The notes: generated by a model not told the origin, from the letters alone. Shown: positions 8,088-45,066, numbered from the stretch's first letter. The stretch: 64,000 bases of DNA from a virus (IMGVR_UViG_2974644367_000001:10237-74236); one strand, 5' to 3'. Numbers and translations: made by a program.

Positions 8088-8091
8088 CAAA

Positions 8092-26396: not shown

Positions 26397-26401
26397 TTAA
26401 T

Positions 26402-26430
26402 AGGCTCCTTTTTACGGGAGCCTTTTTTGT
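26402..26430. terminator. Bidirectional intrinsic terminator between convergent operons
   Basis: AGGCTCC..GGAGCCT stem flanked by A- and T-tracts. Confidence 0.55.
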
Positions 26431-26435
26431 ATCTG

Positions 26436-27928: not shown

Positions 27929-28482
27929 TTAAATTCTAACCCCTTAACTTCAAGAATTTCAATAGACTTCAGCTTTTCCCACTTGTAAGCCTTTTTCGGA
28001 ATCGGTTGCACCTCAACCAACTCTTTGCAGACTTCTCGGAAAGCCACTAAATCCTTCAGCACATTGACGACAAGCTGACTGTCAGAGAGTTTATGATTCT
28101 CTCTAATCTCACGCTCAAATCGCTCAATAATCTGGAGAAGACCATATACCACACCAACATTCAAACGTTCACGGAGACCCTTTGACAGCTTCTGCCATTC
28201 GTGTTCATAACGCTGGTTGATAACATCAACAGCACGGTCATACCCGATACCAACAGCATCAAGTTTCACCATGAACATATCGAACTCTTTACGGTCTTCA
28301 AGGGTCTGGTAAAGGTTCTCATTAGACCACACCTCATTACGGTGATAGCTGGTGATATTCTTTTTAGTGGTTGTCAGGTCACTCGTCAGCGTACTGTGCT
28401 GGAAAGGCCGTCCAGAGAATTTGTCGATGATTAAATAGTGGGCGTAAACGCCCAACTCTTTCAGTGTTTTATTCATAGTCAC
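27925..28482 (-). CDS. Hypothetical protein (track start codon is GTG; ATG at 28476)
   Basis: ORF coupled to the frd and ligase genes. Confidence 0.45.
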   Translation of the reverse strand: MTMNKTLKELGVYAHYLIIDKFSGRPFQHSTLTSDLTTTKKNITSYHRNEVWSNENLYQTLEDRKEFDMFMVKLDAVGIGYDRAVDVINQRYEHEWQKLSKGLRERLNVGVVYGLLQIIERFEREIRENHKLSDSQLVVNVLKDLVAFREVCKELVEVQPIPKKAYKWEKLKSIEILEVKGLEFK

Positions 28483-29572: not shown

Positions 29573-29587
29573 CTTGTTTCCTTAGAG

Positions 29588-29612
29588 AAATAAAAGGACT
29601 CCGAAGAGTCCA
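29588..29612 (-). terminator. Intrinsic terminator (UUCG hairpin family), minus strand
   Basis: On the + strand this reads AAAAGGACTCCGAAGAGTCC, and on the minus strand it is GGACTC-TTCG-GAGTCC-TTTT. Confidence 0.65.
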
Positions 29613-29618
29613 GTAAGA

Positions 29619-29828
29619 TTAGAAGAAGAATGCTCGGAACAGCTTGTACAGGAATAGAACCATGTAACCTGCTGCGAGACCTTCAACGATACCGACAAGG
29701 ATAATAACCGTGTCTGATACGAAACGCAAGGGTCTTTCCGTTGCAAATTTCAGAATTTTAAAGCTATCGACAATGAGCCATAAAATACCGATAGCGATTG
29801 TTAGGCAAACCAGAATAGCACTAAGCAT
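29619..29828 (-). CDS. Small membrane protein (2 TM)
   Basis: A hydrophobic 69 aa ORF. Confidence 0.4.
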   Translation of the reverse strand: MLSAILVCLTIAIGILWLIVDSFKILKFATERPLRFVSDTVIILVGIVEGLAAGYMVLFLYKLFRAFFF

Positions 29829-31089
29829 TTGATTCCTTTAAAATATTCAAGTAGCGGTCAAGAATCTGACCAACTTTATAAGTGTTTGACTTGTGAATTA
29901 GCTGCTTTTTAGTCTGAATATTATCAGTCTCTTTGATAGCCTCAACAACCTCTGGAGAGAGCTTTCTTGTTTGACTTACAATTTCAGCAAGCATGTTCAT
30001 CTGAAGGTACAAGACTTTCTGTAGTCTGGCGTTGGCATCAGAAATACATGTCATACAAAGAGCATTCACGATAGTTGGGTTATTGAACTCTTTATGTTCT
30101 TCTAACCATACCGCAAGTCTATTAGCGCGACGTACAAACATACCATGAACACGATGATGTTGTTCCGCACAGAACTTAGCAGCACTTCTGACATTCTTTG
30201 GAGCACCAATTCTGTCCAAGAAAGACTCCAAGTCCCGAATGTCAGACTCATGTCCGTGAAGATTTCCACGCTCCTTGAGAGTAATCCTCTTACCCATGTC
30301 GTGACATAAGATACACAGGGACTGCATGACCCGATTACTATTATCCCATCCATATTTAGGTAGCTCCACTTCTTCATAATGTTGTAATGCAAGAACGGTA
30401 TGGTTCAGAACGTCACCTTCAGGGTGATACTTCTTAGGCTGTCTTACGCCACGCATACCGGAGATTTCAGCGAACAAGTTGAACTTACCACAAAGACTTA
30501 CAAACTTCCAGAAGTTATCAGAAGATGCAGCCTTTTCAATCTCTTTCCAGATACGCTCCTTCGGAAGATGAGCAAGACAACCAGCCTCAACCATCTCACG
30601 GAAAAGAGCCTTAGTCTCTGGCTCAATGAACAGATTGTGACGTGCTGCAAAGCGTAGCCCTCTAAGGATTCGCAAAGGGTCTTCTTTGAAACGCTCTGCA
30701 TCAACCACACGAAGGATTCTGTTTGCCAAGTCATAGCGACTCATCGGGTGAGCACAAATCAACTCATCAGTGTTTGCACCACCCGCTCTTACAGGAGAAG
30801 CACAGGCATTGATAGTGAAGTCACGGCGAAGCAAATCTTCATCCAGTGTGACACCATTTGTATCAACTTCGAAGTCATTGTAACCTTCACCTGTAGAGCT
30901 TTCACGACGAGCCATAGCAATCTCTGTACCGTCATCGGTGATGAATACAGGGAAAGACTTACCAACCTTTTTCAGACCCAATGCAAGAAGCTGTTCTTCA
31001 GTAGCGTTCACAACCACGAAGTCATGGTCTGATGATTGCTTACCGAAAGCTGCATCCCTGATTGAACCACCTACTAAAAAGAAATCCAT
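29821..31089 (-). CDS. CCA-adding tRNA nucleotidyltransferase / poly(A) polymerase family with a C-terminal HD domain (start at MDFFLVGG; track ORF extends to 31173)
   Basis: The GGSIRD and DHDF head motifs and the HD motif LCHDMGK. A GAGG ribosome-binding site lies 7 nt before the ATG at 31089. Confidence 0.7.
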   Translation of the reverse strand: MDFFLVGGSIRDAAFGKQSSDHDFVVVNATEEQLLALGLKKVGKSFPVFITDDGTEIAMARRESSTGEGYNDFEVDTNGVTLDEDLLRRDFTINACASPVRAGGANTDELICAHPMSRYDLANRILRVVDAERFKEDPLRILRGLRFAARHNLFIEPETKALFREMVEAGCLAHLPKERIWKEIEKAASSDNFWKFVSLCGKFNLFAEISGMRGVRQPKKYHPEGDVLNHTVLALQHYEEVELPKYGWDNSNRVMQSLCILCHDMGKRITLKERGNLHGHESDIRDLESFLDRIGAPKNVRSAAKFCAEQHHRVHGMFVRRANRLAVWLEEHKEFNNPTIVNALCMTCISDANARLQKVLYLQMNMLAEIVSQTRKLSPEVVEAIKETDNIQTKKQLIHKSNTYKVGQILDRYLNILKESNA

Positions 31090-31096
31090 ATCAACC

Positions 31097-31447
31097 TCAC
31101 TCAAAAAGGATGCGCATGTCGTCTTTAGAGATTGCGAAGGTCGGGTAGATAGTCCCGTCAACTTCAATCTCAATCTCGATGAAGGTCAGACCGTGACGCT
31201 CACGGAACAGTGTGTTAGCGATTTCATCACGGGCTTCTTGTGATTTCTTACCAGAGGCCAACTTGAAGTTGGAGTAAGCTGAACCAACCTGCATGTAGCC
31301 ATTTTTACGAGTTGCCTTGTAGACAGGATGACCCTTACCTTCAAAGAACTTCAATAGGTTCTCACCCATCTTCTTTTCATTTGCAGTAGGTTTCCCGTAG
31401 AAACACATCGCATAGTTGTTATGGAAAATCACGTTTTCTTTCTTCAT
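31097..31447 (-). CDS. Hypothetical protein
   Basis: A 116 aa protein and the first gene after the minus-strand promoter. Confidence 0.45.
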   Translation of the reverse strand: MKKENVIFHNNYAMCFYGKPTANEKKMGENLLKFFEGKGHPVYKATRKNGYMQVGSAYSNFKLASGKKSQEARDEIANTLFRERHGLTFIEIEIEVDGTIYPTFAISKDDMRILFE

Positions 31448-31479
31448 CTTAAAGCCCTCTGTGTTGTTAATGTGTGTGT

Positions 31480-31508
31480 AATTTAACAGTAATGGATTCT
31501 AAGGTCAA
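31480..31508 (-). promoter_or_regulatory. Sigma70-like promoter, minus strand (TTGACC-N17-TAAATT)
   Basis: Read on the reverse complement; it lies 25 nt upstream of the start at 31447. Confidence 0.4.
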
Positions 31509-31521
31509 GAAAAATATGCAA

Positions 31522-31546
31522 TAAAAAAGGACTCCGAAGAGTCCCT
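31522..31546 (-). terminator. Intrinsic terminator (UUCG hairpin family), minus strand
   Basis: AAAAAAGGACTCCGAAGAGTCCC on the + strand. Confidence 0.65.
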
Positions 31547-31553
31547 CTGTAAG

Positions 31554-32429
31554 TTACTGATTTTGTTGCTTAATCAGGGCTGACATGTCAATAATCTGAC
31601 CTTGAGATTGACCCTGTACCAGTGGCAGATTACCAGACCACTTCTCAACCAGACGAAGTTGAATAACTGTTGGGTTCTGACGGAGAGCTTCACCCTGAAT
31701 ACGGATGGCTTCTGCTTCACCTTGAGCTTTCAGGATTGCAGCGTCTTTCTCACCCTGAGCCGCATTCTTACGAGCATCAGCAGTTTGTACCGCTGTCAGT
31801 GCAGCCTGTTTCTGGCGCTCTGTATGTTGCTGTTCAGAAATCTTCTGGTTCATTGATTCAACAACCGCTTTAGGTGGCAGAGGGCTACTTGTAAAGTAGA
31901 TGTTCTCAATGATGATGCCGTAACCTGCAACCTGATTTGCAACATCGGCTTTGACATCAATCAGAAGCTGAGTCTTACCGGAGCCATACAGTTCTTCAAC
32001 ACTCAACTTAGAAGCATGACGGATAAATGCGTCACGAATCATGTTGTGCAGGTAGTTGTCTGTAATCTCATCAATACCCTGACGGTATTTCTGGAACAGG
32101 TCAACAGCCTTGTTAGGGTCTACATGGTAAGCCAGACCAACGTTAACTGTCCACTCATCACCACCCTCTGAAGGTTGGATTTTGAAAGCCTGAGAGCCAG
32201 ACCATTCTTTGTTCTGAGTAGTTGTTGGGAACAGATACAGGTCATGACCCCAAGCAGTGAATTTCCAGCCAAGACCGACACGCTGGATAGCGTCTTTATC
32301 GGTATCTGAACCAGTCGTCTTCACGTACACACCGACATTGCCGGGAGTGACCTTGTTACAAGCGGTTAGTGACGTTGCACCGATAACCATTGCAGCAGCG
32401 ATTACGATATTCTTGATTAGCTTCTTCAT
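31554..32429 (-). CDS. SPFH/band-7 (prohibitin/flotillin/HflKC-like) lipoprotein
   Basis: A signal peptide with the lipobox SLTAC. The C-terminus carries an Ala/Glu-rich AEAIRIQGEA band-7 coiled-coil signature. Confidence 0.65.
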   Translation of the reverse strand: MKKLIKNIVIAAAMVIGATSLTACNKVTPGNVGVYVKTTGSDTDKDAIQRVGLGWKFTAWGHDLYLFPTTTQNKEWSGSQAFKIQPSEGGDEWTVNVGLAYHVDPNKAVDLFQKYRQGIDEITDNYLHNMIRDAFIRHASKLSVEELYGSGKTQLLIDVKADVANQVAGYGIIIENIYFTSSPLPPKAVVESMNQKISEQQHTERQKQAALTAVQTADARKNAAQGEKDAAILKAQGEAEAIRIQGEALRQNPTVIQLRLVEKWSGNLPLVQGQSQGQIIDMSALIKQQNQ

Positions 32430-32431
32430 TT

Positions 32432-32674
32432 TTACAGTTTCCTTTTAGAGGCGATTTCGCCAAGTCGTACCATGTTCTCTTCCATCTTTTCAATGGCAGG
32501 TTCAATGGCAACCATTAAGTTATGCAACTCTACGAGAGTCTTCAAACCATCTGACACTTTACCAGTGTTGATGTCCTGTATCGCGTCGAGTAGGTGTATC
32601 TTAATGTTGCTGGTCAGGGATGTCAACGCTTTTTCTTTCATTTCTTGACTCATTTTTATAATACTCAATATCAA
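32432..32674 (-). CDS. Hypothetical small protein (start uncertain; overlaps the next ORF)
   Basis: ORF only. Confidence 0.3.
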   Translation of the reverse strand: MILSIIKMSQEMKEKALTSLTSNIKIHLLDAIQDINTGKVSDGLKTLVELHNLMVAIEPAIEKMEENMVRLGEIASKRKL

Positions 32675-32864
32675 TCAGTTCATGAATAACACCTTTGATG
32701 GTTCCCTTCAAGAAAACCTTCTCAGATGCTGGCAAAGTTGCGTTATCAATCAACGAGTTAAGACGTGCATAGAGTTTCTTTCTACGATTCTTAATCGTTG
32801 ATTCACTCGCATTCCTTTGTGTTGCTGCATGGTTTCTTCCACGATGAGTCATGACTTTTTCCAC
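32601..32864 (-). CDS. Hypothetical small basic protein
   Basis: ORF only. It overlaps the 32432 ORF out of frame. Confidence 0.3.
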   Translation of the reverse strand: MEKVMTHRGRNHAATQRNASESTIKNRRKKLYARLNSLIDNATLPASEKVFLKGTIKGVIHELIDIEYYKNESRNERKSVDIPDQQH

Positions 32865-33055
32865 ACGTCTTTTGTGACTTTGTACATGTTATAAGAAAAC
32901 AGCCCTAGTAAGGCAATCAGGAAAAGCCCAACAAAGAACTCTGCTGTATAAACACGTGACATGAAGTCTGGTAAGTCAGTCACAACCAGAGTCCACAGCC
33001 AAAGGATAAAGAGCCAGATAGCCCCGATAATAAACTTAAAGATAGTCTTCATCAT
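32849..33055 (-). CDS. Small membrane protein (2 TM)
   Basis: Hydrophobic profile. Confidence 0.4.
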   Translation of the reverse strand: MMKTIFKFIIGAIWLFILWLWTLVVTDLPDFMSRVYTAEFFVGLFLIALLGLFSYNMYKVTKDVWKKS

Positions 33056-33380
33056 TGTCAGATTCCTCTAAAAGGTGTAGTGGGTGATAACCTCGAATAT
33101 CATCACCAATGTTGTGATTCATCTCTGCGATACTTTTCTCAGAGAATCCATCAAGAATATTGAAGTCCTGACGACGAAGCACTTTGGATTTACCTGCCTC
33201 AAAATAGACACGTTTACCCATCATACGACGAAACAGTTCTTCATTGATTATAAAGATTGAGTCATGACCGAAGCAGTCCCATGAAACGACAATATCACGT
33301 GCCATTTCAACGTCACTCGGTACATCATCAGGGTCAATCACACTGTTCATCATTTTGCCATTAGTTGTGCTCTGAAACAA
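33036..33380 (-). CDS. Hypothetical acidic protein
   Basis: ORF in the operon. Confidence 0.4.
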   Translation of the reverse strand: MFQSTTNGKMMNSVIDPDDVPSDVEMARDIVVSWDCFGHDSIFIINEELFRRMMGKRVYFEAGKSKVLRRQDFNILDGFSEKSIAEMNHNIGDDIRGYHPLHLLEESDNDEDYL

Positions 33381-33658
33381 CGGTTCTCATCAGCGAAGTT
33401 CCAGAATCGGTCTTTACAGTTAACCTTACCATGAGTCTTAGCATTTGAGCAAAAGATTTTATGGTAAGTCCTTTTCACAATGAGTTTACCACAGAAAGGG
33501 CAAGAGATGGTAGCGCCAGTTTCAGCCGTCTTAGCACGGTTATAGCGCACCTTCATCTTGTTTCTGGTTCGTTCGGTATCTTCCCAACGTTCTTGCCTTT
33601 CTTCCTCAGCAATCTCATCAGCATAATCCCAAACTTCATCATCCATCCCGTAACCCAT
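33350..33658 (-). CDS. Zinc-ribbon protein
   Basis: CPFCG ... CSNAKTHGKVNC cysteine pairs. Confidence 0.45.
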   Translation of the reverse strand: MGYGMDDEVWDYADEIAEEERQERWEDTERTRNKMKVRYNRAKTAETGATISCPFCGKLIVKRTYHKIFCSNAKTHGKVNCKDRFWNFADENRCFRAQLMAK

Positions 33659-33659
33659 A

Positions 33660-33914
33660 TCACAGACCCCTTTTCATCTCAGCTAAAGCCATTCGACCCT
33701 GTGGAGTCTTTAATAGTTCGGCTTCATCTGTTTCATCAAACTCTTGGGATTTCATGAAGGAATCATACTCAGAATCAGAGATTAGAATCCAGCGATAATC
33801 ATCACTCTTCCAAGTGTATTCTTCCAGTTCTGACCGGAAGCACCATGAGTCATCAGGCCAGACCACAATATCATCTGGACTCAAGGGTTGAAACATAGCA
33901 TTTTTCCGTTCCAT
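33660..33914 (-). CDS. Hypothetical protein
   Basis: ORF in the operon. Confidence 0.4.
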   Translation of the reverse strand: MERKNAMFQPLSPDDIVVWPDDSWCFRSELEEYTWKSDDYRWILISDSEYDSFMKSQEFDETDEAELLKTPQGRMALAEMKRGL

Positions 33915-34147
33915 TGAACGACCTCCATAAATTGCATTTCATCCATAGCCAGAGCGATAGTACCCTCAAGAGTCTCAACACTCGTTCTGACCATATCTAC
34001 ACCACCATGCTTCTCAAGACAAATCAACTTGAAAGATGGTTTTGCACAGAGAATTGCTGCCATACGGATTGCCATACGACCAGCATTTTTATTGTGACGG
34101 ATAAAACCTTCACGGTCTTTTACCCTAACTTCAAAAATCTTTTCCAT
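33881..34147 (-). CDS. Hypothetical protein (first gene of the leftward small-gene operon)
   Basis: GAGG ribosome-binding site. A promoter lies just upstream. Confidence 0.4.
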   Translation of the reverse strand: MEKIFEVRVKDREGFIRHNKNAGRMAIRMAAILCAKPSFKLICLEKHGGVDMVRTSVETLEGTIALAMDEMQFMEVVQWNGKMLCFNP

Positions 34148-34167
34148 CGGCTACCTCTTTGTGTGTG

Positions 34168-34196
34168 AAGATACACATCCTTGTGCATCATGTCAA
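34168..34196 (-). promoter_or_regulatory. Sigma70-like promoter, minus strand (TTGACA-N17-TATCTT)
   Basis: Read on the reverse complement; it lies 13 nt upstream of the start at 34147. Confidence 0.45.
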
Positions 34197-34199
34197 CTG

Positions 34200-36890
34200 T
34201 TAGTGAACATCCAACCAGTTTTTACCAACTTTACCAGTACCTGTTACCAGTGTGTCCGGTAAGAGTTTCAGAGCTTTAGATGCTGTACCGTACATTGCAT
34301 CAATAACCTCTTTAGCCTCATGAATCATCTCGTTAGGAACTTCCCAAGAGTTTTCATCGTGGTATGCGCAAAGCAGTCTTGCACCGATAGCTGGCTTACG
34401 ACCATTCAGTTTCATCAAGCCCTTGTCAAGCATCTGACGACAAGCCCAATTCACTGCCTCATTTTGAACCTGAGCTTCGGAACCCATCAAAAGATAGTTC
34501 AGAATCTTATGAGGGCTGTTACACCACAGATAAGCACCTGCAACACTGATAAAGCCACCTTTACAGATTGGGTGAGTTTTACCAAACACCTGACCAAGAG
34601 CTTTCTTAGTAGCCTTGAACTCATCTTCAAGACGGTCAAGCAGAGCCTTAATCTTAGGGAGGCGTGTGAAGTATGTCTGTTTGATTCGAGCACCTTCATC
34701 TGTAGTCTTCACTTTGATGGTCTTAGCAAACTTCTCATCACCACCACCGAACAGCAGACAGTAGATACCGTTCTTCGCTTTCTTACGACCGTTGCTAATC
34801 TTATGAATCAGGTCTTCATCCTGCGTTGCACGTGCAGTGATAATATCTGACTCTTCATTCAGGGTAAACTGAATTGAGTTAAACGAGTGAGCATCAGTAC
34901 CAGTGTAGACAACGTACAAGTCGTTCTCTTCATCATAGTTCAGGTATTTGTCAATCGTCGGGTCAAGGTACTTGTCCAGTTTAGAACAGTAGTAACGACC
35001 ATCTTCTGTACGCTTGAACTCCACATCCTCTTTACCTTTCGTTACAGCGTAGGTGAAGTCAGGGTCTCCCATGAAGTTACAAAGCAGCACAAGCTGTGCA
35101 GAGTTCATATCTACAGAGATAACGCTTGTACCCTCTTCACAGCCCCACACTTCACGCATCTGAGCGCCATACACCGCAGCAGATGAAGGTGTGTTTACGA
35201 TGCCCCACTGAGTCATACGACCAGTAGATGTCCCGAAGACTGTAGCACCTGCACTCATACGCCCATCAGCACGAACCATGTTCAGCCAACCCTTCTCATC
35301 ATGTTTAGGGTTTTCGAGTGTACGGCGACGATGCTGTAACGTGTTGTACTTCGCAATGCTCTGTCCAAGTGAACCGTTGATGGTGTCGTATGAACTTTCA
35401 GTCAGCTTAGGAGAAGTGCGTAAACGTGCATTATCCCATTCTGGCATAGAGCGGCGAAGTGTGTAAGTGTACATCAGATACTTGATACCGTCATGCTCAA
35501 TCACATCAAGACCAAATTCATCTTTCCACTTACGGGTGAACTTGTTCAGTCGGATAAGACGACCAGATTGTTTATCACGACAAATCTTAGCATCTTTACC
35601 GTCCTTATCTTTCTTGTAGTTGTAGTCATCAGGAACCCAACCACACTTGTTCAGAAGATAACCCTTCACTACGTCATGTTGTGACATGGTTGACTTCTCA
35701 AAGCTGATTCGTGTATGAGGTGCAGCAATCACACCATCGTAACGGTTAGACTCAAGCCCGAAGTGGTTCACAGTATGCGTGTCATACTCAAGACCTTCTG
35801 ACTCACGCTTCAGAGCTTTCCACTGACAATCTTTTGGTTTAGCTGTGCCGTTCAACTCTTTACAAGCATCACGTGCTTCTTTCAGACTGCCAAAGATGGT
35901 CTTCACAACTTCACCTGTTACAACGTTCTCAACAGAGTAAGTCTTGATAACCTTCTTATTGGTTGAACTGAAGGTAGGTTTAGCCAACGGTTTAATCTCA
36001 ACACGTTTAGTCTCACCCTTACGCTTCATCATCCGATACTTCGTTGGCGGGTACTGTGTAATCTTACGAACAGATTCATCACCTAACTCATCGGCATACG
36101 CTGACCAACCTTTAGCAAAGTCCTCATAAGTGACTTTACCTTTGTTCTTGATAGTTGGTGGTAGGTTTGGCTCGATGGTTTCAGCCAACTCTGTAATAGT
36201 TACATCAAGTTCATCAGCATACTTTCGCATCAGTTCAACATTTGCTTTCCAGCCGTTGATACCCTGTTGACCCATCCAGAAAGATGTTTGTTTGGCACGT
36301 TCATAGGTTTCTGTAGTGTCTACACCACACTCCTTGAGCATACGCTTTTCTTTATCAAGCATACGTTTGGTACGGGCGTTGATTCGAATATCTTCAACGA
36401 CACGTGTAAGCATCCGTCCATCCCAAGTTGTCCAATCCTCAATCTCAGGTTTATGAACACCACAACGAGCACCCCATGCAGCCAGACCATGAGCACCCTT
36501 ATAACCACGTGGAGTCGGACGGTCATGCCACTGAACACGCGACTGTACAAGGGAGTCTTGCCATTTGGCATCCCAAGGTTTTGCAGTGTTAATGTTGAAC
36601 AGGTCAGGTGCAATATGGTTGAACACCCACCAGTCATATTGACAGAGGTTATGAATAACAACTTCTGCACAACGGTTCATCATGAACTCAATACCCTCAC
36701 GAAGACCACCTTTGATGTACTTAGTGTACGGGTGTCCAATCGGTACAGGTTTATCAGTGAATACAAAGATTTGGTCATCAGTCTTAGACTTGTACTCACA
36801 GAACGCCATAACGTGAACGTCATCAAACTCCATTAACAGGCCGTTTGTTTCCGAGTCACCCACAACGTGTAACAATTCTTGCTCAGGCAT
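34200..36890 (-). CDS. DNA polymerase, family A (T7 gp5-like, with 3'-5' exonuclease; start at MPEQELL; track ORF extends to 36941)
   Basis: Exo motif DSETNGL, motif B RKKAKNGIYCLLFGG and motif C YHDE. AGGAG ribosome-binding site. Confidence 0.9.
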   Translation of the reverse strand: MPEQELLHVVGDSETNGLLMEFDDVHVMAFCEYKSKTDDQIFVFTDKPVPIGHPYTKYIKGGLREGIEFMMNRCAEVVIHNLCQYDWWVFNHIAPDLFNINTAKPWDAKWQDSLVQSRVQWHDRPTPRGYKGAHGLAAWGARCGVHKPEIEDWTTWDGRMLTRVVEDIRINARTKRMLDKEKRMLKECGVDTTETYERAKQTSFWMGQQGINGWKANVELMRKYADELDVTITELAETIEPNLPPTIKNKGKVTYEDFAKGWSAYADELGDESVRKITQYPPTKYRMMKRKGETKRVEIKPLAKPTFSSTNKKVIKTYSVENVVTGEVVKTIFGSLKEARDACKELNGTAKPKDCQWKALKRESEGLEYDTHTVNHFGLESNRYDGVIAAPHTRISFEKSTMSQHDVVKGYLLNKCGWVPDDYNYKKDKDGKDAKICRDKQSGRLIRLNKFTRKWKDEFGLDVIEHDGIKYLMYTYTLRRSMPEWDNARLRTSPKLTESSYDTINGSLGQSIAKYNTLQHRRRTLENPKHDEKGWLNMVRADGRMSAGATVFGTSTGRMTQWGIVNTPSSAAVYGAQMREVWGCEEGTSVISVDMNSAQLVLLCNFMGDPDFTYAVTKGKEDVEFKRTEDGRYYCSKLDKYLDPTIDKYLNYDEENDLYVVYTGTDAHSFNSIQFTLNEESDIITARATQDEDLIHKISNGRKKAKNGIYCLLFGGGDEKFAKTIKVKTTDEGARIKQTYFTRLPKIKALLDRLEDEFKATKKALGQVFGKTHPICKGGFISVAGAYLWCNSPHKILNYLLMGSEAQVQNEAVNWACRQMLDKGLMKLNGRKPAIGARLLCAYHDENSWEVPNEMIHEAKEVIDAMYGTASKALKLLPDTLVTGTGKVGKNWLDVH

Positions 36891-36928
36891 TTTCAACTCC
36901 TTATTTAGATACGAGCATGATACATGGT

Positions 36929-37405
36929 TTACCCATGACAAGCAAACTCACCGTGCAACTCTTCACGACGAGTTCTTACAGCCGCCTCAGCAGCCCTCTT
37001 AGACGCATGGTAGCCACAGCCATAGGTTTTCCCGAAGACACACACTCTGGCTCTCCAGCGGCCTGTACGTTCATCGTAACAGACACCCTTCACACCAGAC
37101 TTGCTATCCGACCGCAGAGAAGTGTTCCAGCTATTCATAGCGTGTGTAGCCTCTCTAAGATTCTTCCAGCGGTTGTCATACCTCTTGTGGTTCTTATGGT
37201 CAATTATCTTAATCGGGTATTCACCAGTGACATAGTACCAAGCCAGTAAGTGTGCGCGGTAAGTTTTACTGTTCACCTTAATCTGGATGTAACCCGACTT
37301 AGATAAATGTCCAGCAACCTCACCGGAATCTTTCCAAATGAATTCACCAGTTGTCTTTCGGTATTTCAATAAACTTCTTAATTCTGAATGAGTTAATTCA
37401 CACAT
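36929..37405 (-). CDS. HNH homing endonuclease with an AP2 DNA-binding domain
   Basis: HNH core IDHKNHKRYDNRWKNL and AP2-like SGVKGVCYDERTGRWRARV. It is free-standing between the promoter and the polymerase gene. Confidence 0.7.
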   Translation of the reverse strand: MCELTHSELRSLLKYRKTTGEFIWKDSGEVAGHLSKSGYIQIKVNSKTYRAHLLAWYYVTGEYPIKIIDHKNHKRYDNRWKNLREATHAMNSWNTSLRSDSKSGVKGVCYDERTGRWRARVCVFGKTYGCGYHASKRAAEAAVRTRREELHGEFACHG

Positions 37406-37644
37406 GCCCCTATCCTCTGATTAATAACACACCCATCATATCACAAGTGTATGGTGAAATACAACTTGACATGGCTAAAAATTAGCTGTACATTCTTTTT
37501 GCCGTTCCTCTTAACAGATTCTTTAAAGTAAACTTCTTTAGAAAACAATAAGTAACAATTAGATATAATAAGAGTCTTTATAGATTGACTTTAAAGATGC
37601 CGATATGGTAAGATTAGCTATTGGTTAATTTACGGTGTAAGGCT
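37406..37644. promoter_or_regulatory. AT-rich divergent promoter region and candidate replication origin
   Basis: Leftward extended -10 promoter (TGaTATGAT on the reverse complement, -10 at 37435..37440). Rightward promoters are TTGACA 37467 and TTGACT 37585 with TGGTAAGAT. There are four CTTTA[AT]AG-like repeats. Confidence 0.45.
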
Positions 37645-38052
37645 ATGAACAAATTAAATATTCATCCAGTCTTCCAAAACTTTATCGAAAGTCTGGAAGC
37701 TGTTTTAGCTCTGGAAAAAGAATCTCAAAAGGCTTATTCACATAGCCATGCTCGTATGGTCGATGTCCAGCATGAGATTGAATTGTCAGAGGACTATGAA
37801 GATGTCTTGAAAGTTTTGGTCTTCGACCAGATGAAAGAAATCTCTAAAGAGCGTAGACGCCACAAAGATACCTTGCTCATCATGGATATGTTGCGTAAGA
37901 TGCTTCGTACAGGTATCGAGGTAGAAGACCTTTCCAGATTCTTAGAAGAATCCGGTAAAGAGTGGAGTCGCCACTATACCCCACGTGCTGAGAAGTCTTT
38001 GAACTTTCAGTCTCCTGAAAAATTAAGAGAGAGTCGTATCAACCATGACTAA
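37645..38052 (+). CDS. Early hypothetical protein (track start is TTG at 37621)
   Basis: First ORF after the early promoter. Confidence 0.5.
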   Translation: MNKLNIHPVFQNFIESLEAVLALEKESQKAYSHSHARMVDVQHEIELSEDYEDVLKVLVFDQMKEISKERRRHKDTLLIMDMLRKMLRTGIEVEDLSRFLEESGKEWSRHYTPRAEKSLNFQSPEKLRESRINHD

Positions 38053-38659
38053 ATTGAGAAACCCTTTACTGATTCCCTGTCTGATATTGAGTCAGATGGA
38101 TGTCTTGCAAGAAGCTAATGAAATGTTGGAGTTACCGCCACTGTCTAAGCCGAACAGATACTTAGATTACTTCATAGACCCCTCGAAAGGGTTGCGCTAT
38201 TTCATGGCCTGTATGTATGGGATGACTGAATCAATCCGTACAGATGATAAGGAACAGTTCTGGAAAGAGTTTGCAAAGGTGATGAAGTCGCCAGCCTCTT
38301 ATGATGTTCCTGATGTCAAAACTCTTAATGGTCTGATTGAAGAGTCCATGAAAGATTTCTTTGACATTGCACCTAAAATTATTGGTGATTCCCCTGCAAA
38401 GGCTTTCACTGAAACGTGGTTCGATTCAGAGTCTGCCCCTGATTCTTACGTGACTAAAGCGTATACTATTGAGAGGATTACACCTTTCTTATTCACTGCG
38501 ATTTATTGGTTGACAGACACTTCAGAGTCGCGTAGTCTTAGTGACTATCAAGAGGCAGTCGGAAAATCTGACTTACTCGATAAGATTTACACCAATATGG
38601 AAAACTCAAAAGGGTTCTCCTTAAAATACATCCAGAAAAAGGAAAAGTCTCATGACTAA
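38045..38659 (+). CDS. Early hypothetical protein
   Basis: ORF coupled by an overlapping start. Confidence 0.5.
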   Translation: MTKLRNPLLIPCLILSQMDVLQEANEMLELPPLSKPNRYLDYFIDPSKGLRYFMACMYGMTESIRTDDKEQFWKEFAKVMKSPASYDVPDVKTLNGLIEESMKDFFDIAPKIIGDSPAKAFTETWFDSESAPDSYVTKAYTIERITPFLFTAIYWLTDTSESRSLSDYQEAVGKSDLLDKIYTNMENSKGFSLKYIQKKEKSHD

Positions 38660-39506
38660 AGAACAACAGCTTGACCAGACCATGAACCAACTTCAGGTAG
38701 AGTTCAAACAAGAACTTAAAACTCTGACTGATAAGTTTGGTATCAAGCCAACTGGCAACCCTGAAGTTCCGTTTATGGTTGCGCTGTCTGCATCAGGTCT
38801 TCTGGAGATTATCTCAAAAGGTACAACTGAGAAGATTCAGAACACCGACACCGATACAGCCGCTGATTTGGAAAACGCTTACGGTGAGGTTGAGGTTGCT
38901 GGTGCTCGTAAACTGATGATTGCAACCTGTCAAACGCTGATGGCTGCATGGGGTCTGTGGGTTGCTGGTCAGCCTTACAACTACCCTGAACTGTTCGCCA
39001 AATACTCTGAAGCCCTGAAAGGTCTGGATGAGTCTGACGATGCACAGTATCAGACGCTGGTACGCGAGACCTTAGCGAAAGCCAATGAGTCCACTGCTGC
39101 GTTTGTTGAAAAGACAGGTGCAGGTGACTATGACAAGACCTTGCAGGAACTGAATGAATCTATGCAGGTGTTCTTTGCTCAGACTCAAGGTACTGAAGTC
39201 TACACAGTCAGCCTCTCTGCTGCACTGGTTCAGGTTTCTACCGAAGTTCTGGTTCACAGTCACTATCTGATGAAAGAAGGTATTGCACCGGACTTTGACA
39301 CCTTCTGTCAGCAGGTCGCTCCAATGACTGCATTCCTGTTCAGTCAGCTTCTGGAGCAAGTTATGGATTTCTGCATCAAGAAAGATATGGTGCAAAAACT
39401 TGGTCAGGCTGGTGCTGATGAGTTCGAAGCAGAGTTGGCTACTCTCTCGAAGCGTTATAGCGAGAAAGCCCGATTCGAAGTTCAAAATGCTGGACTTGAC
39501 CAGTAA
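38652..39506 (+). CDS. Early hypothetical acidic protein
   Basis: ORF coupled by an overlapping start. Net acidic. Confidence 0.5.
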   Translation: MTKEQQLDQTMNQLQVEFKQELKTLTDKFGIKPTGNPEVPFMVALSASGLLEIISKGTTEKIQNTDTDTAADLENAYGEVEVAGARKLMIATCQTLMAAWGLWVAGQPYNYPELFAKYSEALKGLDESDDAQYQTLVRETLAKANESTAAFVEKTGAGDYDKTLQELNESMQVFFAQTQGTEVYTVSLSAALVQVSTEVLVHSHYLMKEGIAPDFDTFCQQVAPMTAFLFSQLLEQVMDFCIKKDMVQKLGQAGADEFEAELATLSKRYSEKARFEVQNAGLDQ

Positions 39507-39565: not shown

Positions 39566-40552
39566 ATGGTTGATTTAATTCTGTTAAATGGCGCTGCACG
39601 TTCCGGTAAAGATACGTGTGCATCCCTCATGCAAAAGATTCTCAAAGCCAACGGTCGTGACTCCCATATCATCCACTTCTATGACCCACTCAAAGGTGCT
39701 GTTGATGGTATGTTTGGTTTTGACCAGCGTCACCGTGACGGGTCTTTGAAAGAAACTCCTGTTATGATTCGTATGAATCCTGACCTGATGGCATCTGCTA
39801 TCCTGAAAACTCTCGAACATCCTGATTCACCCTACAAAGAGTTTGAAGACCTGAGCTTCACAAGTCACACACTTGCATGTGATTTCATTGACCTGATTCA
39901 GGAAGATGAGTTCTCAAGCGAGGTTGAAGGTTCTTCAGCATTAATCTCTCCACGCAGACTGTATCAGCTTTACGGCACTGAACTGATGCGCCAGAGCTTT
40001 GATAATGACATCTGGATTAACTTTGCTAAGAAAGCGTATGAGAACGCTGCTAAACTGAACAAAGTCACCATTATCAGTGATTTGCGCTTTGACAATGAAG
40101 CGGAGTTTGGTAAGATGCACAGCGGCTTAATTCTCAAGGTAATCAATCCAGAGGTGACTGCATCTCAAGTGTCTGCTCATGTTTCAGAAGCTGGCATTAG
40201 TAAAGAACATCTGTCAGGGACTATCATCAACAGCCATAGCCGTGGGCTTGATGAACTTGAGAAACTTCTTGTTGAAGTCCTTGATATGTACGGTGTAGTA
40301 TCACACTTCACACGTGTTGTTGACTTCCGTAAAGCAGAGATTGGCTTATTACCAATTTCAGTTATTTGTGGACGGCTCAACATCGCTCGTCAGTGTCGTG
40401 CTGCGATTGAAGATGAGATGGAGAAGTCCATCCGTGAAGGTTGCCACCGTGCTTACTACAATCAACTCCATGAGGATTGGGTTGAGGCTGATAAGATTGT
40501 AAAAGGTCTTCGTGAAGAATACCTGAAGAGAACGAAGAGGATTAATGACTAA
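39566..40552 (+). CDS. Deoxynucleoside monophosphate kinase (T4 gp1-like) with a C-terminal extension
   Basis: The N-terminal P-loop LILLNGAARSGKDT closely matches the T4 dNMP kinase N-terminus. Confidence 0.65.
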   Translation: MVDLILLNGAARSGKDTCASLMQKILKANGRDSHIIHFYDPLKGAVDGMFGFDQRHRDGSLKETPVMIRMNPDLMASAILKTLEHPDSPYKEFEDLSFTSHTLACDFIDLIQEDEFSSEVEGSSALISPRRLYQLYGTELMRQSFDNDIWINFAKKAYENAAKLNKVTIISDLRFDNEAEFGKMHSGLILKVINPEVTASQVSAHVSEAGISKEHLSGTIINSHSRGLDELEKLLVEVLDMYGVVSHFTRVVDFRKAEIGLLPISVICGRLNIARQCRAAIEDEMEKSIREGCHRAYYNQLHEDWVEADKIVKGLREEYLKRTKRIND

Positions 40553-42458
40553 TAAACGCTTCAAAGAGAAAGAGAAGGGTACATTCATCGGGCATACTGC
40601 TTGCCCGAAGTGTGGCTCATCTGATGCAGGTTCGGTTTATCGTCACGATGATGGTAGCCATTCAATGACTTGTTTTGCTTGTGAAAAAGGTTTTCCCGAA
40701 TGGGATGTGGAGAAGAATCAGATGTCAGAAAGAACTTATGAAAAGACTGAAAACACTAAACGTACCTTCGAAGGGTATGATATGGCTGCTGTCAAGGAAG
40801 ACTTGGTTGCTATGGATTTACCAGACCGTGTTCTTCCAGAAGCCCTGTTAGAGTCTTTTGGTGTGAAGGTTGACACTGACGGTAACGGTGATATTTGCGC
40901 TCACTTCTACCCAACGTATAAACTTGATAACGCTGGAGTTCCTTATCATGCTGGTTATCGTGTACGTCACCGATTCCCTGATGACTACAAGAAACCTGAA
41001 CTGCGTGGCAAGCTGAAAGACTTCTCCGGTGGTGTTGGTGATATTTCTGGAGAGTTACAACTCTTCGGTTCACAACGTCATGCCAAAGGTGGTAAGCGTC
41101 TATTCATTTGGGAAGGTGAGATTGAGTCTATGACGGCTGACCTCCTGACCAGTATGATTGTAGAGAAGAATCGCCGTAAGCACTATGCACACACCTCATT
41201 ACCTTCTGGTGCAAACATCAAGGGTATTAAGGATAACTATCAGTACATCACATCGTTTGAAGAGATTTATATCTGTGCAGACAATGATGAAGCTGGTGCT
41301 AAGTTTATGCGTGAGGCTGCTCGTATTCTCCCGATTGAGAAGGTTCGTATCTTCCAATATCCAGAGAATATCAAAGACCTGTCTGATTGGTGGAAAGGTA
41401 GCCAGAAGAAGCGTAAAGTGATGCTGGACGAATTCAAACATCGTCTGTATAACGCTGAACGTTACTGTCCTGCTGGTATCAAGAACTTCGCAGATGGTTA
41501 TGACGCAATGAAGAATCGTGGTAAGGTTCCACTGATTCCATTCCCTGAATCATTCGGTGACTTGAACGCACTGACTTTCGGTGGTTATGGTAAAGGTGAG
41601 ATTACGACGATTGCTGCACCGTCTTCTGTTGGTAAGTCTGCGTTTACACGTGAAATGATTTACACGGCATTCACACAAACTGATGAGAAGATTGGTGTTA
41701 TCCCTTGTGAAGACACCTATGAAGAACTCATGGAAATGCTTTGCTCTGTTCACCTTAGCAAGCAGATTTCTGAGATTCCATACGATGAACGTAATTGGGA
41801 TGAAATCAAGGAAGCACACAAACAGCTTTCTGAAGGTCGTCGTATCAACATCGTTGACCATCAGGGTGCAATTGACCAAGATAACCTTCTTGAGTTTATT
41901 GACTATCTGGTTGGTGCAATGGGCTGTGGAGTTATCATCCTTGACCCTGTAACATTGGCACTGTCCAAAGCTGAGACAGATGAAGAAGAAGTTTTGTCAG
42001 AGATTCTTCGTCGTTGTAAGCGTCTTGGGTATGCTCATGTAAACGTCTGTCACGTTCGTAAGAACAGTGGTGGTCAAAAGGCTAACTCAGAAGGTGGTGA
42101 CGTTGCAGAAGAGGATATTAAGGGTTCTGGTGCATACTTCCAGATTTCTATGAATAACCTCATCCTGACCCGTAACAAGGTTGACTCTGACCGTGTTCGT
42201 AAGAACATCACTAAGATTAAGTTGACCAAATGTCGTCGTCATGGTAAAAGTACAGGCATTGCAGGTTACGCCTATTACGATGGTGAAACAGGTCGTCTTG
42301 TCCGTGCTGCTGGTGCTGGAGAAGAGCTTGACACTGCGATGGAAAACATTAAAATGCAATACGGTATCGAGGATGAAGAGGACGTTTCAAGTTCTGACGC
42401 ATCACAGTTAGGTTTCGATGCACCTGATGATGATGACATTCCATTCCGTACTGAGTAA
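40545..42458 (+). CDS. DNA primase-helicase (T7 gp4-like)
   Basis: Zinc finger CPKCGSSD..CFAC, TOPRIM motifs (EGE, CADNDEAG) and a DnaB-like Walker A GKGEITTIAAPSSVGKS. The C-terminus is acidic. Confidence 0.9.
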   Translation: MTNKRFKEKEKGTFIGHTACPKCGSSDAGSVYRHDDGSHSMTCFACEKGFPEWDVEKNQMSERTYEKTENTKRTFEGYDMAAVKEDLVAMDLPDRVLPEALLESFGVKVDTDGNGDICAHFYPTYKLDNAGVPYHAGYRVRHRFPDDYKKPELRGKLKDFSGGVGDISGELQLFGSQRHAKGGKRLFIWEGEIESMTADLLTSMIVEKNRRKHYAHTSLPSGANIKGIKDNYQYITSFEEIYICADNDEAGAKFMREAARILPIEKVRIFQYPENIKDLSDWWKGSQKKRKVMLDEFKHRLYNAERYCPAGIKNFADGYDAMKNRGKVPLIPFPESFGDLNALTFGGYGKGEITTIAAPSSVGKSAFTREMIYTAFTQTDEKIGVIPCEDTYEELMEMLCSVHLSKQISEIPYDERNWDEIKEAHKQLSEGRRINIVDHQGAIDQDNLLEFIDYLVGAMGCGVIILDPVTLALSKAETDEEEVLSEILRRCKRLGYAHVNVCHVRKNSGGQKANSEGGDVAEEDIKGSGAYFQISMNNLILTRNKVDSDRVRKNITKIKLTKCRRHGKSTGIAGYAYYDGETGRLVRAAGAGEELDTAMENIKMQYGIEDEEDVSSSDASQLGFDAPDDDDIPFRTE

Positions 42459-42476
42459 AATGTTTTAAAATAAGTA

Positions 42477-42505
42477 TTGCAATAGGTGGGTAGGCTTGGT
42501 AAGAT
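42477..42505 (+). promoter_or_regulatory. Sigma70-like promoter with an extended -10 (TTGCAA-N17-TGGTAAGAT)
   Basis: Same TGGTAAGAT element as the promoter at 37585. Confidence 0.5.
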
Positions 42506-42557
42506 ACTCACCTCGTTTGAGAAGACAAACTAATAACCCATAGAAGGAAACTGACTA

Positions 42558-43418
42558 ATGTCTAAAGCTGAATCTAAACTTGTTGTTCTGAAGCCTCTGT
42601 CTGTAAAAGGCAAAGAAGTTCCACGTTATGCTCTGAAAGATGTGTGGTTCTACTTCCTGAACACCATGCCTCAACTGAACAAGGGTAAACGCGAAGACGC
42701 AAGTTTCCCGATGAAGAACCGCACCTTCAGTGTTTCTGTTCTGGCTGACCGTAAGACTGCGGTTGCGTTCAAGAAGAAGTTCTCTGATTGTAAAATCGAG
42801 ACCGTTGACGCTGAAGAGTTTGAAGAGAAGTTCAAGTGTGAGCCACCTTTTGAAGCTGAAACTTACAGCATTATCAAACTGGCTCGTCACGCATCTTACC
42901 CTGACGGCTCGTTCTTCCTCGGTGCTCATGGTCTGGACGTGTTCGTACTGGAAGGTCGTAAACCAGTTGGCGTTCCGATGAAGAAAATCAAAGCCAAGGC
43001 TCACGCTGACCACGAAGAGCGCAAGGATTATGACGGTATCGTTCCTAATCTGGCTATCGGTAACGGTTCATTTGGTACTATCATCTGTGAAGAGTATACT
43101 TATACCTTCGAAGGTGCTCAGAAAACCAAACCGATTCACCAGCAGGTTTACATCTCTGACTTGGTAGCTTACGAAGGTGGTTCTTCTGTTGACCGTAACC
43201 TTGAAGCTGATGAACTGTCAGAACTTGGTTTCGATGAACCTGTACAGAGTGGTGAAATCATCGAAGAAGAAGCGAAAGGTGCATCTTCTGAGAAGTCTTC
43301 AAGCAAACCTTCTAACGATGGTGACGACGATTCTGATGACGGTGACAACGACATCCCTCAGTATGGTGATGACGATGATTCCGACGACGATGATGATGTT
43401 CCGTTCAAAACCGAATAA
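42558..43418 (+). CDS. Putative ssDNA-binding protein (T7 gp2.5-like) with an acidic C-terminal tail
   Basis: Position after the primase-helicase under a strong promoter. The acidic tail ends in DDDDDVPFKTE. Confidence 0.5.
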   Translation: MSKAESKLVVLKPLSVKGKEVPRYALKDVWFYFLNTMPQLNKGKREDASFPMKNRTFSVSVLADRKTAVAFKKKFSDCKIETVDAEEFEEKFKCEPPFEAETYSIIKLARHASYPDGSFFLGAHGLDVFVLEGRKPVGVPMKKIKAKAHADHEERKDYDGIVPNLAIGNGSFGTIICEEYTYTFEGAQKTKPIHQQVYISDLVAYEGGSSVDRNLEADELSELGFDEPVQSGEIIEEEAKGASSEKSSSKPSNDGDDDSDDGDNDIPQYGDDDDSDDDDDVPFKTE

Positions 43419-43484: not shown

Positions 43485-44558
43485 ATGGCTTTAACCGATG
43501 CTGAGAAGCATAGTAAATTCACCCTTTCAAAAATACCTGCCACAGTTAAGCTGGCATACTTTGACTCAGACCCTATCGCTTATCGTGGGGCATTTGCTGT
43601 TGAGAAGACTAAGTATCGCTTCACAAACTCTGAGACGTTTGAAGAGTCTCCACCATTCTTGAGTGCAAAAGATGCTAAGTCTTGGTTGGATGGTCAACAA
43701 GATATTGCAGAGTCAATTGGTATCGAGTTCCGTAAACAAGATTGGGTTCGTTATGATTGGAAAGAACCTTTGTCTGTTGAGGAAGCTATTAAGGCCACTC
43801 AGGATGTTCTACAGGCTTATATCAAGGCTTCTGGTGTCCATGAAGATGACTGGATGGGCTTCTTGACACAACGTGGTGTAGAGAAGACTAAAGACTTGAA
43901 AGGTCTTGAACACCAGTATCAGGGCAACCGTTCAGGCTTCACACCAACTCACCTTGACGCAACCAGACAACATCTGATTGACAAGTCACAGATGCACTTA
44001 CTGTCTGATGGATTTGAGGCTGATGCCGCTGTAATCGCAATGGGTGAACGTAAAGGTAAACGTGCTGTCATCTTATCACTTGACAAAGACCTTCGTCAGT
44101 TGATGGGTGGTTACATGCTTGACATGTCCTATGACAAGGCTCCGCTCATCTTCAATACCGTTGATAACCCACTTGGTGACGTTTGGCGATGCCCTATCAA
44201 GTCAAAACCTAAACAACCTCCGAAGTATGTTGGTTGTGGTTTTAAATGGCTCTGTTATCAGGCTCTGGCTGGAGACCCTTCAGACGGCTACTATGGTATC
44301 TCTGGAGTTGGTGGTGCTGCGATTATCAAACTCCTTGATGAATGTGAGACTATTCACCAGTGCTTAGACGCAATCTATGCCCTCTACAAGAAGAAGTTCC
44401 CTGAAGGGTACACATATACCTCATGGGACGGTGTAGAGACTCACAGGACGCCTGAAGAGCTTATGACACAGCATTTCATGTTGCCTTATCAGGAGCGTAG
44501 CATGGACGATGTATTTACCTTTGAAAAATATGATTGGAGTTTTAACATGAATGGATAA
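43485..44558 (+). CDS. 5'-3' exonuclease / flap endonuclease (FEN, T7 gp6/T5 D15-like)
   Basis: The PIN-like LSLDKDLRQL motif and the H3TH GISGVGGAAIIK motif. Confidence 0.75.
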   Translation: MALTDAEKHSKFTLSKIPATVKLAYFDSDPIAYRGAFAVEKTKYRFTNSETFEESPPFLSAKDAKSWLDGQQDIAESIGIEFRKQDWVRYDWKEPLSVEEAIKATQDVLQAYIKASGVHEDDWMGFLTQRGVEKTKDLKGLEHQYQGNRSGFTPTHLDATRQHLIDKSQMHLLSDGFEADAAVIAMGERKGKRAVILSLDKDLRQLMGGYMLDMSYDKAPLIFNTVDNPLGDVWRCPIKSKPKQPPKYVGCGFKWLCYQALAGDPSDGYYGISGVGGAAIIKLLDECETIHQCLDAIYALYKKKFPEGYTYTSWDGVETHRTPEELMTQHFMLPYQERSMDDVFTFEKYDWSFNMNG

Positions 44559-45066
44559 GCTGCCACGTTACGCACATTGGGTGTCTCTCTGCGGAGAGAT
44601 TAACCCTGAAAAACTTTTCGGTTTTGTCTATGTGGTCTACAATAAAGCCCATAACAGATTTTACATCGGAAAGAAACAATTCTTTTCAGTTACTAAGAAA
44701 AAGATTGTTGGAAAAGTTCGAAGAAAGACTTGCATCAAGGATTCAGATTGGTTAAGATACTTCACATCTTCTGAGTACGTTAAGAAAGATATTGAAGAGC
44801 TTGGGTTAGACAACTTTGAGTTCTATATCATCGAAACGTATGAGACTAAATCGGGTCTGGTCTACGCTGAAGCTAACCTTCAACATAAGTTTGATGTGAT
44901 GCAAAAAAGTGTTGACTCTGATACTCGCAAGTTTTACAATGCAAATGTCGCTGCTATCAAGTTCCTCGTAAAAGAGATTAAGCCTGTAGCAGCAAAACGA
45001 ATTAAACAACTAATTGAATATAAAGAGGCTCACCATGTTCGCAATTCTGAAAAAACTGTTCTCTGA
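44551..45066 (+). CDS. GIY-YIG nuclease
   Basis: GFVYVVYN...RFYIGK GIY-YIG motif. Confidence 0.6.
   Translation: MDKLPRYAHWVSLCGEINPEKLFGFVYVVYNKAHNRFYIGKKQFFSVTKKKIVGKVRRKTCIKDSDWLRYFTSSEYVKKDIEELGLDNFEFYIIETYETKSGLVYAEANLQHKFDVMQKSVDSDTRKFYNANVAAIKFLVKEIKPVAAKRIKQLIEYKEAHHVRNSEKTVL

Follow-up and report, generated by a model that had tools for sequence, protein, structure and literature searches.

Look-alike acidic tails on the T7-type primase-helicase and single-stranded-DNA-binding protein of Erwinia phage vB_EamM-M7

The replication module and its two tailed proteins

[quoted passage not shown] The window is 100% identical to positions 10,237-74,236 of the record of Erwinia phage vB_EamM-M7 (HQ728263 / NC_041978), a Felix O1-like myovirus of 84,694 base pairs (bp) that belongs to Ounavirinae, Kolesnikvirus. 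The record annotates gp065 as 'DNA primase/helicase' and gp066 as hypothetical, and the cluster around the two genes includes a family A polymerase (gp059), a deoxynucleoside monophosphate (dNMP) kinase and a 5'-3' exonuclease; the exonuclease has weak Pfam 5_3_exonuc matches and falls in PHROG 107 ('exonuclease', E 1.1e-52). The neighborhood forms a replication module of the T7 type within a Felix O1-like myovirus, with gp4-, gp2.5- and gp5-like proteins plus the 5'-3' exonuclease (Table 1), and two homing-type endonuclease genes break up the cluster.

We found that gp065, an open reading frame (ORF) of 637 amino acids (aa) that ends in ...SQLGFDAPDDDDIPFRTE and is followed by TAA, aligns with T7 gp4A by BLASTP over residues 13-585 (29% identity, E 2e-45), including the Cys4 zinc ribbon. 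It carries the Pfam domains Toprim_2 and DnaB_C and matches PHROG 239 ('DNA primase/helicase', E 1.8e-165). By these sequence matches, gp065 is a T7 gp4-type bifunctional primase-helicase, whose single chain joins a zinc ribbon, a TOPRIM primase and a DnaB-family helicase. An earlier sequence-only reading of the window had called the protein a primase-helicase, which agrees with these results, and had placed both ORFs and described both of their ends correctly.

The last 37 residues of the primase-helicase have a net charge of -10. The sequence LGFD.P is common to the gp065 tail and the gp066 linker, and an [LM]G[FYL] element occurs in some, not all, related helicase tails (P0016, P0021, P0023 and P0027-29). 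The primase-helicase homologues P0031, P0037, P0066, P0090 and P0091 are 890-956 aa long, ~300 aa above the rest, and P0090 carries the homing-endonuclease (intein-type) Pfam domains PF05204 and PF05203; these domains point to inteins in the helicase domain.

The 286-aa product of gp066 ends in ...YGDDDDSDDDDDVPFKTE, then TAA. It is annotated as hypothetical in nearly all records; one related record has 'putative SSDNA-binding protein'. As a single sequence, gp066 has no match in a direct Pfam scan, and its PHROG, 3877, is of unknown function. We found that an AlphaFold2 model built with 15 homologues is confident and beta-rich over residues 1-205 (predicted local distance difference test, pLDDT, about 85) and disordered over residues 208-286 (pLDDT below 50), and that the predicted core has an oligonucleotide/oligosaccharide-binding (OB) fold of gp2.5 topology.

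An exhaustive profile search returned 89 gp066 relatives, mostly of 200-245 aa. Compared with all PDB sequences, an 88-member profile of the family matched only 1je5 (gp2.5, E 1.3e-6) and 4klk (DUF2815, E 0.0049). Seven family members match Pfam SBB_T7 (PF21265) and six match Enc34_ssDNA-bd (PF10991), and the BFVD fold matches include proteins with the names helix-destabilizing, single-stranded DNA (ssDNA)-binding and DUF2815. Direct comparison of the 15-sequence gp066 alignment with T7 gp2.5 by hhalign was weak (probability 11.5%); the homology was set through intermediates, since the wider 88-sequence profile and the Pfam matches of family members were needed. Hence, taking the fold model together with the profile, Pfam and BFVD matches, gp066 is a T7 gp2.5-type OB-fold SSB. 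The sequence-only reading had called it SSB-like, and the OB fold by which that label was to be checked is present in the predicted core.

The predicted OB core of gp066 is followed by a disordered acidic linker and tail of opposite net charge (Table 1). An [D/E][D/E]L..LG[F/L/Y] element of this linker is present in every clade member; in the alignment, L220, L223 and G224 are invariant or nearly so among SSB homologues, and the model predicts a short helix at residues 217-222. Further along (43323-43367, ...DGDNDIPQYGDD), ~15 residues before the tip, lies a D-[I/L/M]-P-x-[Y/P] module that reads DNDIPQY here and is kept across the SSB homologues (DEDLPDP, DDDLPNP, DDDMPDP, DDDAPLD). Hence, the SSB tail may be bipartite. 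The LG[F/L/Y] and D[I/L/M]P elements, and the LGFD.P of the helicase tail, may be secondary contacts.

Table 1. Positions in the window of the module genes and of the tail and docking features.
Feature	Position	Strand	Basis
Primase-helicase gp065, T7 gp4-like: Cys4 zinc ribbon, TOPRIM, DnaB/RecA-type helicase	40545..42458	+	Pfam, PHROG, BLASTP
Acidic C-terminal tail of primase-helicase, GIEDEEDVSSSDASQLGFDAPDDDDIPFRTE	42363..42455	+	sequence, charge; after conserved ...TGRL... end of helicase domain
SQLGFDAP, short motif common with SSB linker (ELGFDEP)	42402..42425	+	sequence; precedes acidic run
Primase-helicase tail tip DDDDIPFRTE: acidic run, Phe at -4, R-T-E	42426..42455	+	sequence
gp066, T7 gp2.5-type SSB	42558..43418	+	predicted fold, family profiles
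Predicted OB-fold core of SSB, residues 1-205, net charge +4	42558..43172	+	model, charge
Disordered acidic linker and tail of SSB, residues 206-286 (81 residues), net charge -26	43173..43415	+	pLDDT, charge
ELSELGFDEP, conserved [D/E][D/E]L..LG[F/L/Y] element of SSB linker	43212..43241	+	alignment, model
SSB tail tip DDDDSDDDDDVPFKTE: acidic run, Phe at -4, K-T-E	43368..43415	+	sequence, alignment
5'-3' exonuclease (FEN/T7 gp6-like role), next gene in module	43485..44558	+	Pfam, PHROG
Family A DNA polymerase gp059, T7 gp5-like; putative receptor for both tails	34200..36890	-	Pfam, BLASTP, PHROG
Lys-rich polymerase loop, residues 755-779, EDEFKATKKALGQVFGKTHPICKGG; candidate docking site	34554..34628	-	MAFFT alignment, charge scan

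The two tips and their conservation

The primase-helicase ends in ...DDDDIPFRTE and the SSB in ...DDDDDVPFKTE, so that DDDIPF is literal in the gp065 tail, DDDVPF stands in the gp066 tail, and three residues ([R/K]-T-E) follow the Phe in both. We found 8 of the last 10 residues alike between the two proteins; the next best pair reached 4 of 10 among 19,701 pairs of genome ORFs with 60 aa or more. When all six frames of the window were scanned, an acidic run with an [IV]PF terminus was confined to the gp065 and gp066 ORFs, and these were also the only ORFs of the complete genome with an acidic run and an aromatic-x-T-x terminus; no third protein with the same tip was found in the whole genome. 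The match between the two tips is far beyond chance.

One other gene product, that of gp055 (33036-33305, minus strand; 89 aa as annotated; PHROG 5848, of unknown function), has an acidic, aromatic end (...LLEESDNDEDYL). The gene lies in the minus-strand block downstream of the polymerase, and, apart from the two tips, its ...EESDNDEDYL is the one acid-rich aromatic C-terminus encoded by the replication-region genes, in a format unlike both.

Since the two genes are adjacent and on the same strand and their tips are nearly identical, the likeness could in principle stem from a recent copy, either by gene conversion or duplication between the neighbors or by horizontal capture of the 3' end of a host ssb. 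The codons argue otherwise. The last 11 codons of gp065 and gp066 are identical at 24 of 33 nt, the synonymous codons for P, T and E differ (CCA/CCG, ACT/ACC, GAG/GAA), and the R/K and I/V codons differ as well. Hence, the likeness of the tips is held at the protein level and is not a fresh DNA copy. The tip format is also kept in both genes across divergent genera (SSBs 37-47% identical, helicases about 65-70%), and the stretch shared with host ssb (~15 nt) is too short to inform on descent. We reject a recent DNA copy between the two tails in view of the codon differences, and we give recent copying of any kind next to no credence.

Among the 15 SSB homologues, F283 and T285 of gp066 are nearly invariant in the alignment, and the tip core is aromatic-x-Thr-[Glu/Asp/Asn], not DDDIPF. 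The SSB tips include ...EDEDFDTED (Felix O1-type), ...DDFETDDE (Moogle-type), ...DEWETN and ...APFETE; the Kolesnikvirus-type proteins have [I/V]P ahead of the Phe, and APF occurs in one other relative. In the same phages, the primase-helicase tips are ...DDCPFETE or ...DDCPFETD, ...GFQTE, ...QFSTT, ...DDFVTA and ...GNFVTV, and an F-x-T-x tip is carried by the primase-helicases of most related genera. Paired by phage, the tips of helicase and SSB are PF-R-TE and PF-K-TE in vB_EamM-M7, PF-E-T[E/D] and DF-[D/E]-T[E/D] in the Felix O1, SUSP and Moogle types, and GFQTE on both proteins in Pectobacterium phage Wc4-1. Judged from these sequences, DDD[I/V]PF in this phage is a small step from the DDCPF (helicase) and DDF (SSB) of its relatives.

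We also took a census of the terminal formats of 76 distant gp2.5-like proteins and found 34 that end in PF-COOH (10 of these in D[D/E][I/L/V]PF-COOH), 13 that end in W-COOH and 14 in which W is followed by 1-3 more residues. No other tip is as common among them as an acidic run that closes in PF. Present in 34 of the 76, such an end is a recurrent phage solution that need not come from the host. In many distant helicase tails, F already stands three residues before the end (...EDFVSL, ...EDFVSI, ...DDFLKI), and in the Ounavirinae-type clade both proteins, SSB and helicase, have a tip of the 'aromatic plus three' format.

The tip of E. coli SSB is DDDIPF and is highly conserved (PMC5872125). 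The sequence-only reading equated DDD[IV]PF with this tip, proposed that both phage proteins had converged on or captured the host motif, and predicted docking perhaps also to host SSB partners. Under such mimicry, DDD[I/V]PF would dock both proteins to the host readers of SSB (chi, PriA, RecQ, ExoI and DnaG among others), recruiting or titrating them. The exact DDDIPF in the helicase tail and the DDDVPF in the SSB tail fit this explanation, as do the bacterial-type ends on the 10 distant phage SSBs counted above. The hexapeptide is indeed there; however, its Phe is not C-terminal, and DDDIPF is not conserved in the relatives.

The position of the Phe matters to the host readers. The pocket in which the E. 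coli SSB partners hold the ultimate Pro-Phe is hydrophobic and has a basic rim (PMC3045619; PMC5872125); in chi, K124 forms a salt bridge with the carboxylate of SSB F177, and an SSB extended by one Gly beyond F177 is impaired in vivo and shows no detectable chi affinity (PMC3045619). ExoI and RecQ have a similar pocket for the ultimate Phe (PMC3045619). Hence, since the SSB partners bind an ultimate Phe and a single Gly abolishes chi binding, the three-residue extension on the phage tips should block canonical binding, which counts against the predicted docking to host partners. In addition, relatives of the Felix O1, Moogle and SUSP types, whose recorded hosts are Salmonella, Citrobacter and E. 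coli, have CPFETE/D and [E/D]DF[D/E]T[E/D] tails, although E. coli SSB has DDDIPF. The idea of convergence on, or capture of, the host tail is likewise not supported, in view of the relatives' CPFETE and EDFDTED, the PF ends common in the phage family and codons that bear no sign of a recent transfer. We therefore consider host-SSB mimicry very improbable.

Mimicry would regain ground if [R/K]-T-E were a removable cap that a carboxypeptidase or other protease, of host or phage, trims during infection. The helicase would then end in ...DDDIPF-COOH and the SSB in ...DDDVPF-COOH, and both proteins would switch from phage-replisome ligands to host-SSB mimics, or the reverse. The tips of the relatives, if trimmed to ...CPF and ...EDF, would fit the canonical formats, PF-COOH and DF-COOH, that prevail elsewhere in the gp2.5 family. 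We assign a trimmable cap a very slim chance.

A proposed shared site for both tips

Co-variation of the two tips was followed in 80 loci around more distant primase-helicases, in each of which the gp2.5-like gene was located; the count comprises 38 non-redundant helicase/SSB pairs, among them that of T7 and those of phages with W tips from environmental metagenomes. We found that the last aromatic is F on both proteins in 25 of the 38 pairs and W on both in 7, and that F is paired with W in none. Hence, a change in one tip goes with a change in the other, which is what a single site that reads both would predict. This F/W co-variation argues for one shared receptor, which is most likely the phage polymerase, as in T7. 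In one sister lineage (locus L037), a PIF1-family helicase gene (6950-8320) is inserted between the primase-helicase gene (P0027) and that of an SSB with the tip ...DDWETE.

The co-variation also bears on whether the tails need a partner at all. They might instead be intramolecular DNA mimics or electrostatic shields, alike through composition and shared history. In T7, the gp2.5 tail competes with ssDNA for the protein's own OB groove and modulates on- and off-rates, and the tails studied here are low-complexity and rich in D/E. Charge alone, however, would not fix an aromatic-x-Thr-acid tip in two unrelated folds across genera, and it explains neither the strict F/F and W/W concordance nor the 8/10 identity against a background maximum of 4/10; moreover, the helicase has no OB groove to shield. 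We regard tails with no specific partner as improbable.

In T7, gp4 and gp2.5 both use their acidic tails to bind the polymerase gp5, at its front basic patch (K587, K589, R590, R591) and at a patch of its thioredoxin-binding domain, and the two proteins compete for the polymerase; deletion of F232 of gp2.5 prevents the polymerase interaction. The polymerase of the present phage, gp059, has the Pfam domain DNA_pol_A, belongs to PHROG 17 and matches T7 gp5 by BLASTP (E 3e-11), with a C-terminal ...NW..H end in common. We infer from T7 both that the tails bind as such and that the polymerase receives them; of the proteins considered, it is most likely the receptor of both.

We aligned 19 polymerases with MAFFT (this phage, T7 gp5 and 17 from related loci) and found, at the position of the T7 front basic patch, a loop that varies in length, is basic in most of the 19 and is Lys-rich here. 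The most basic polymerase segments in a charge scan are residues 273-320 and 437-456, which lie in an enlarged stretch that separates the exonuclease domain from the palm, where T7 has its thioredoxin-binding insert. The 755-779 loop is put forward only as a candidate docking site, because the T7 patch residues are not kept in the pairwise alignment. Among the related loci, the polymerase ORF of L059 (Felix O1-type contig IMGVR_UViG_3300045988_003503) stops at 727 aa with a divergent end, and sister loci have ~899 aa; an interruption of the L059 gene is possible, whether through an intron, a mobile element or a sequencing error.

The co-variation shows a shared reader to exist but does not tell which protein it is, and the reader could be another phage protein: one of gp061-gp063 (37621-39506), or the helicase, were it to read the SSB tail. 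The reader would then be a hub or processivity factor in place of the thioredoxin arrangement of T7. Two or three genes of unknown function do lie between polymerase and helicase in the related loci examined, and the missing conservation of the T7 front-patch residues would fit as well. Nothing, however, links gp061-gp063 to replication; the homologous T7 tails bind the polymerase; and gp059 is Lys-rich at the front-patch position and in an enlarged thumb region. We hold a reader other than the polymerase to be unlikely.

Several observations weigh against docking of both tips to one polymerase site of the T7 kind. The pairwise BLAST alignment of gp059 with gp5 shows no conservation of the residues that form the front basic patch in T7. 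The aromatic of the tips is not C-terminal, unlike in T7, and the pocket must therefore differ. The F/W co-variation rests on a few deep clades, and thus on few independent switches. At L024/L081, the primase-helicase (P0021) lacks the F-x-T tip while the SSB still ends in ...DEWETN, and at L024 we found no hidden frameshift or extension that would restore the helicase tip. In some lineages, the SSB tail is of the W-x-T-E kind and the helicase tail ends in Y or is built differently; in one clade, helicase ...EDFVIDRGKDY is paired with SSB ...DDWETE. Hence, tip pairing is common, not obligatory.

On balance, given the homology of all three partners to T7 proteins and the co-variation, we favor an inherited phage replisome docking arrangement, in which both tips are alternative ligands of one site and not a copy of the host SSB, as the probable explanation, though by no means a secure one. 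Both gp065 and gp066 have a flexible, strongly acidic tail that ends in an acidic run, an aromatic and x-Thr-[Glu/Asp]. In the favored arrangement, either tip would fit one and the same site of a replisome partner, and a basic patch of the polymerase is the likeliest such site. The helicase being hexameric, its six tails could recruit polymerases to the fork and retain them there. On the lagging-strand template, the same tip on the SSB would hand over the ssDNA, with the SSB displaced by the polymerase and stimulating it. In free SSB, the tail probably folds back and shields the protein's own basic OB groove. Because both would have to fit the same site, the tips would stay alike and change together in evolution. 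The likeness to DDDIPF would then be lineage-specific variation on a shared tip format, not host mimicry.

The genes around the two tailed proteins include further features of their own. Three successive genes of unknown function on the plus strand, gp061-gp063, lie between the polymerase on one side and the dNMP kinase and helicase on the other; they fall in PHROGs 4039, 25891 and 23329, the two scanned against Pfam had no match, and related loci L033-L037 have two or three genes without a Pfam match in the same position. Their products are possible unrecognised replisome accessory proteins. An HNH endonuclease gene (36929-37405, minus strand) adjoins the polymerase gene. Beyond the exonuclease, gp068 (44551-45066, plus strand) is labeled 'NAD synthetase' in RefSeq, but it matches Pfam SegE_GIY-YIG (E 2.5e-28); hence, it is a homing-type GIY-YIG endonuclease within the replication module. 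Within 26000-38000, the guanine-cytosine (GC) skew turns negative (-0.08 to -0.13) over roughly 28-38 kb of the window; this region contains the minus-strand block that runs from thymidylate synthase through the polymerase and HNH genes, with plus-strand blocks on both sides.

The assignment of gp066 as an SSB is new for the subfamily Ounavirinae and gives a gp2.5-type function to a protein (PHROG 3877) listed as 'hypothetical' in nearly all records of the group, which includes the Felix O1-type phages of Salmonella and E. coli and Erwinia phages of a type under study as biocontrol agents against fire blight. In the literature searched, where none of the listed titles or abstracts dealt with Ounavirinae, we found no description of this tail arrangement in Ounavirinae, and the main text of Lopes et al. 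2010 has no mention of Felix O1. Acidic tails on these two proteins are what a replication specialist would expect; the T7 rule of look-alike acidic tails on helicase and SSB now reaches large myoviruses and uncultured phages of environmental metagenomes. The tip variants (F/F, W/W and aromatic-x-T-E on both proteins) could serve to map the pocket of the receptor and the specificity of that pocket. As a caution, an internal DDDIPF is not to be taken as host-SSB mimicry.

Comparison with T7, bacterial SSB and other gp2.5-like proteins

Bacterial SSB has a C-terminal tip (SSB-Ct, DDDIPF-COOH) that serves as a hub for chi, PriA, RecQ, ExoI and DnaG, among other partners. It resembles the phage tails in its acidic run followed by [I/V]-P-F, in standing at the end of a disordered tail after an OB-fold SSB and, in gp065, in the literal DDDIPF. 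It differs in that the Phe of the phage tips is not C-terminal, so that the contact through the alpha-carboxylate is absent, and in that the motif is not kept in the sister phages on E. coli and Salmonella.

Of the Enterobacter phage Enc34 SSB / DUF2815 (PF10991) proteins and the wider gp2.5-like family, most of the distant members have PF-COOH or W-COOH as their exact end, unlike the Ounavirinae-type clade, which ends in aromatic-x-T-[E/D].

The T7 replisome is alike in its homologous primase-helicase, in its T7-type family A polymerase and in a helicase and an SSB that each have an acidic disordered tail with a single key aromatic and tips that resemble each other. A check of the T7 sequences gave ...SNDTDF for gp4 and ...DEDGDF for gp2.5; these ends are alike, and with the published competition for the gp5 basic patches they bear out the T7 analogy drawn in the sequence-only reading. 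The differences are of detail and of setting. The aromatic is the last residue in T7 (F232 in gp2.5), whereas here it stands at -4 and is followed by x-T-[E/D]; gp066 accordingly lacks a terminal aromatic, a feature that defines the T7 mechanism and not the fold family. Compared with the T7 SSB, gp066 has more residues (286 vs 232 aa), and two additional conserved elements, LG[F/L] and D[I/L/M]P, stand in its 81-residue tail. Compared with gp5, gp059 is about 190 residues longer and does not conserve the front-basic-patch residues. Finally, T7 is a 40-kb podovirus and the phage studied here an 85-kb myovirus. The tails of gp065 and gp066 are the T7 arrangement in a different phage family, with a variant tip.

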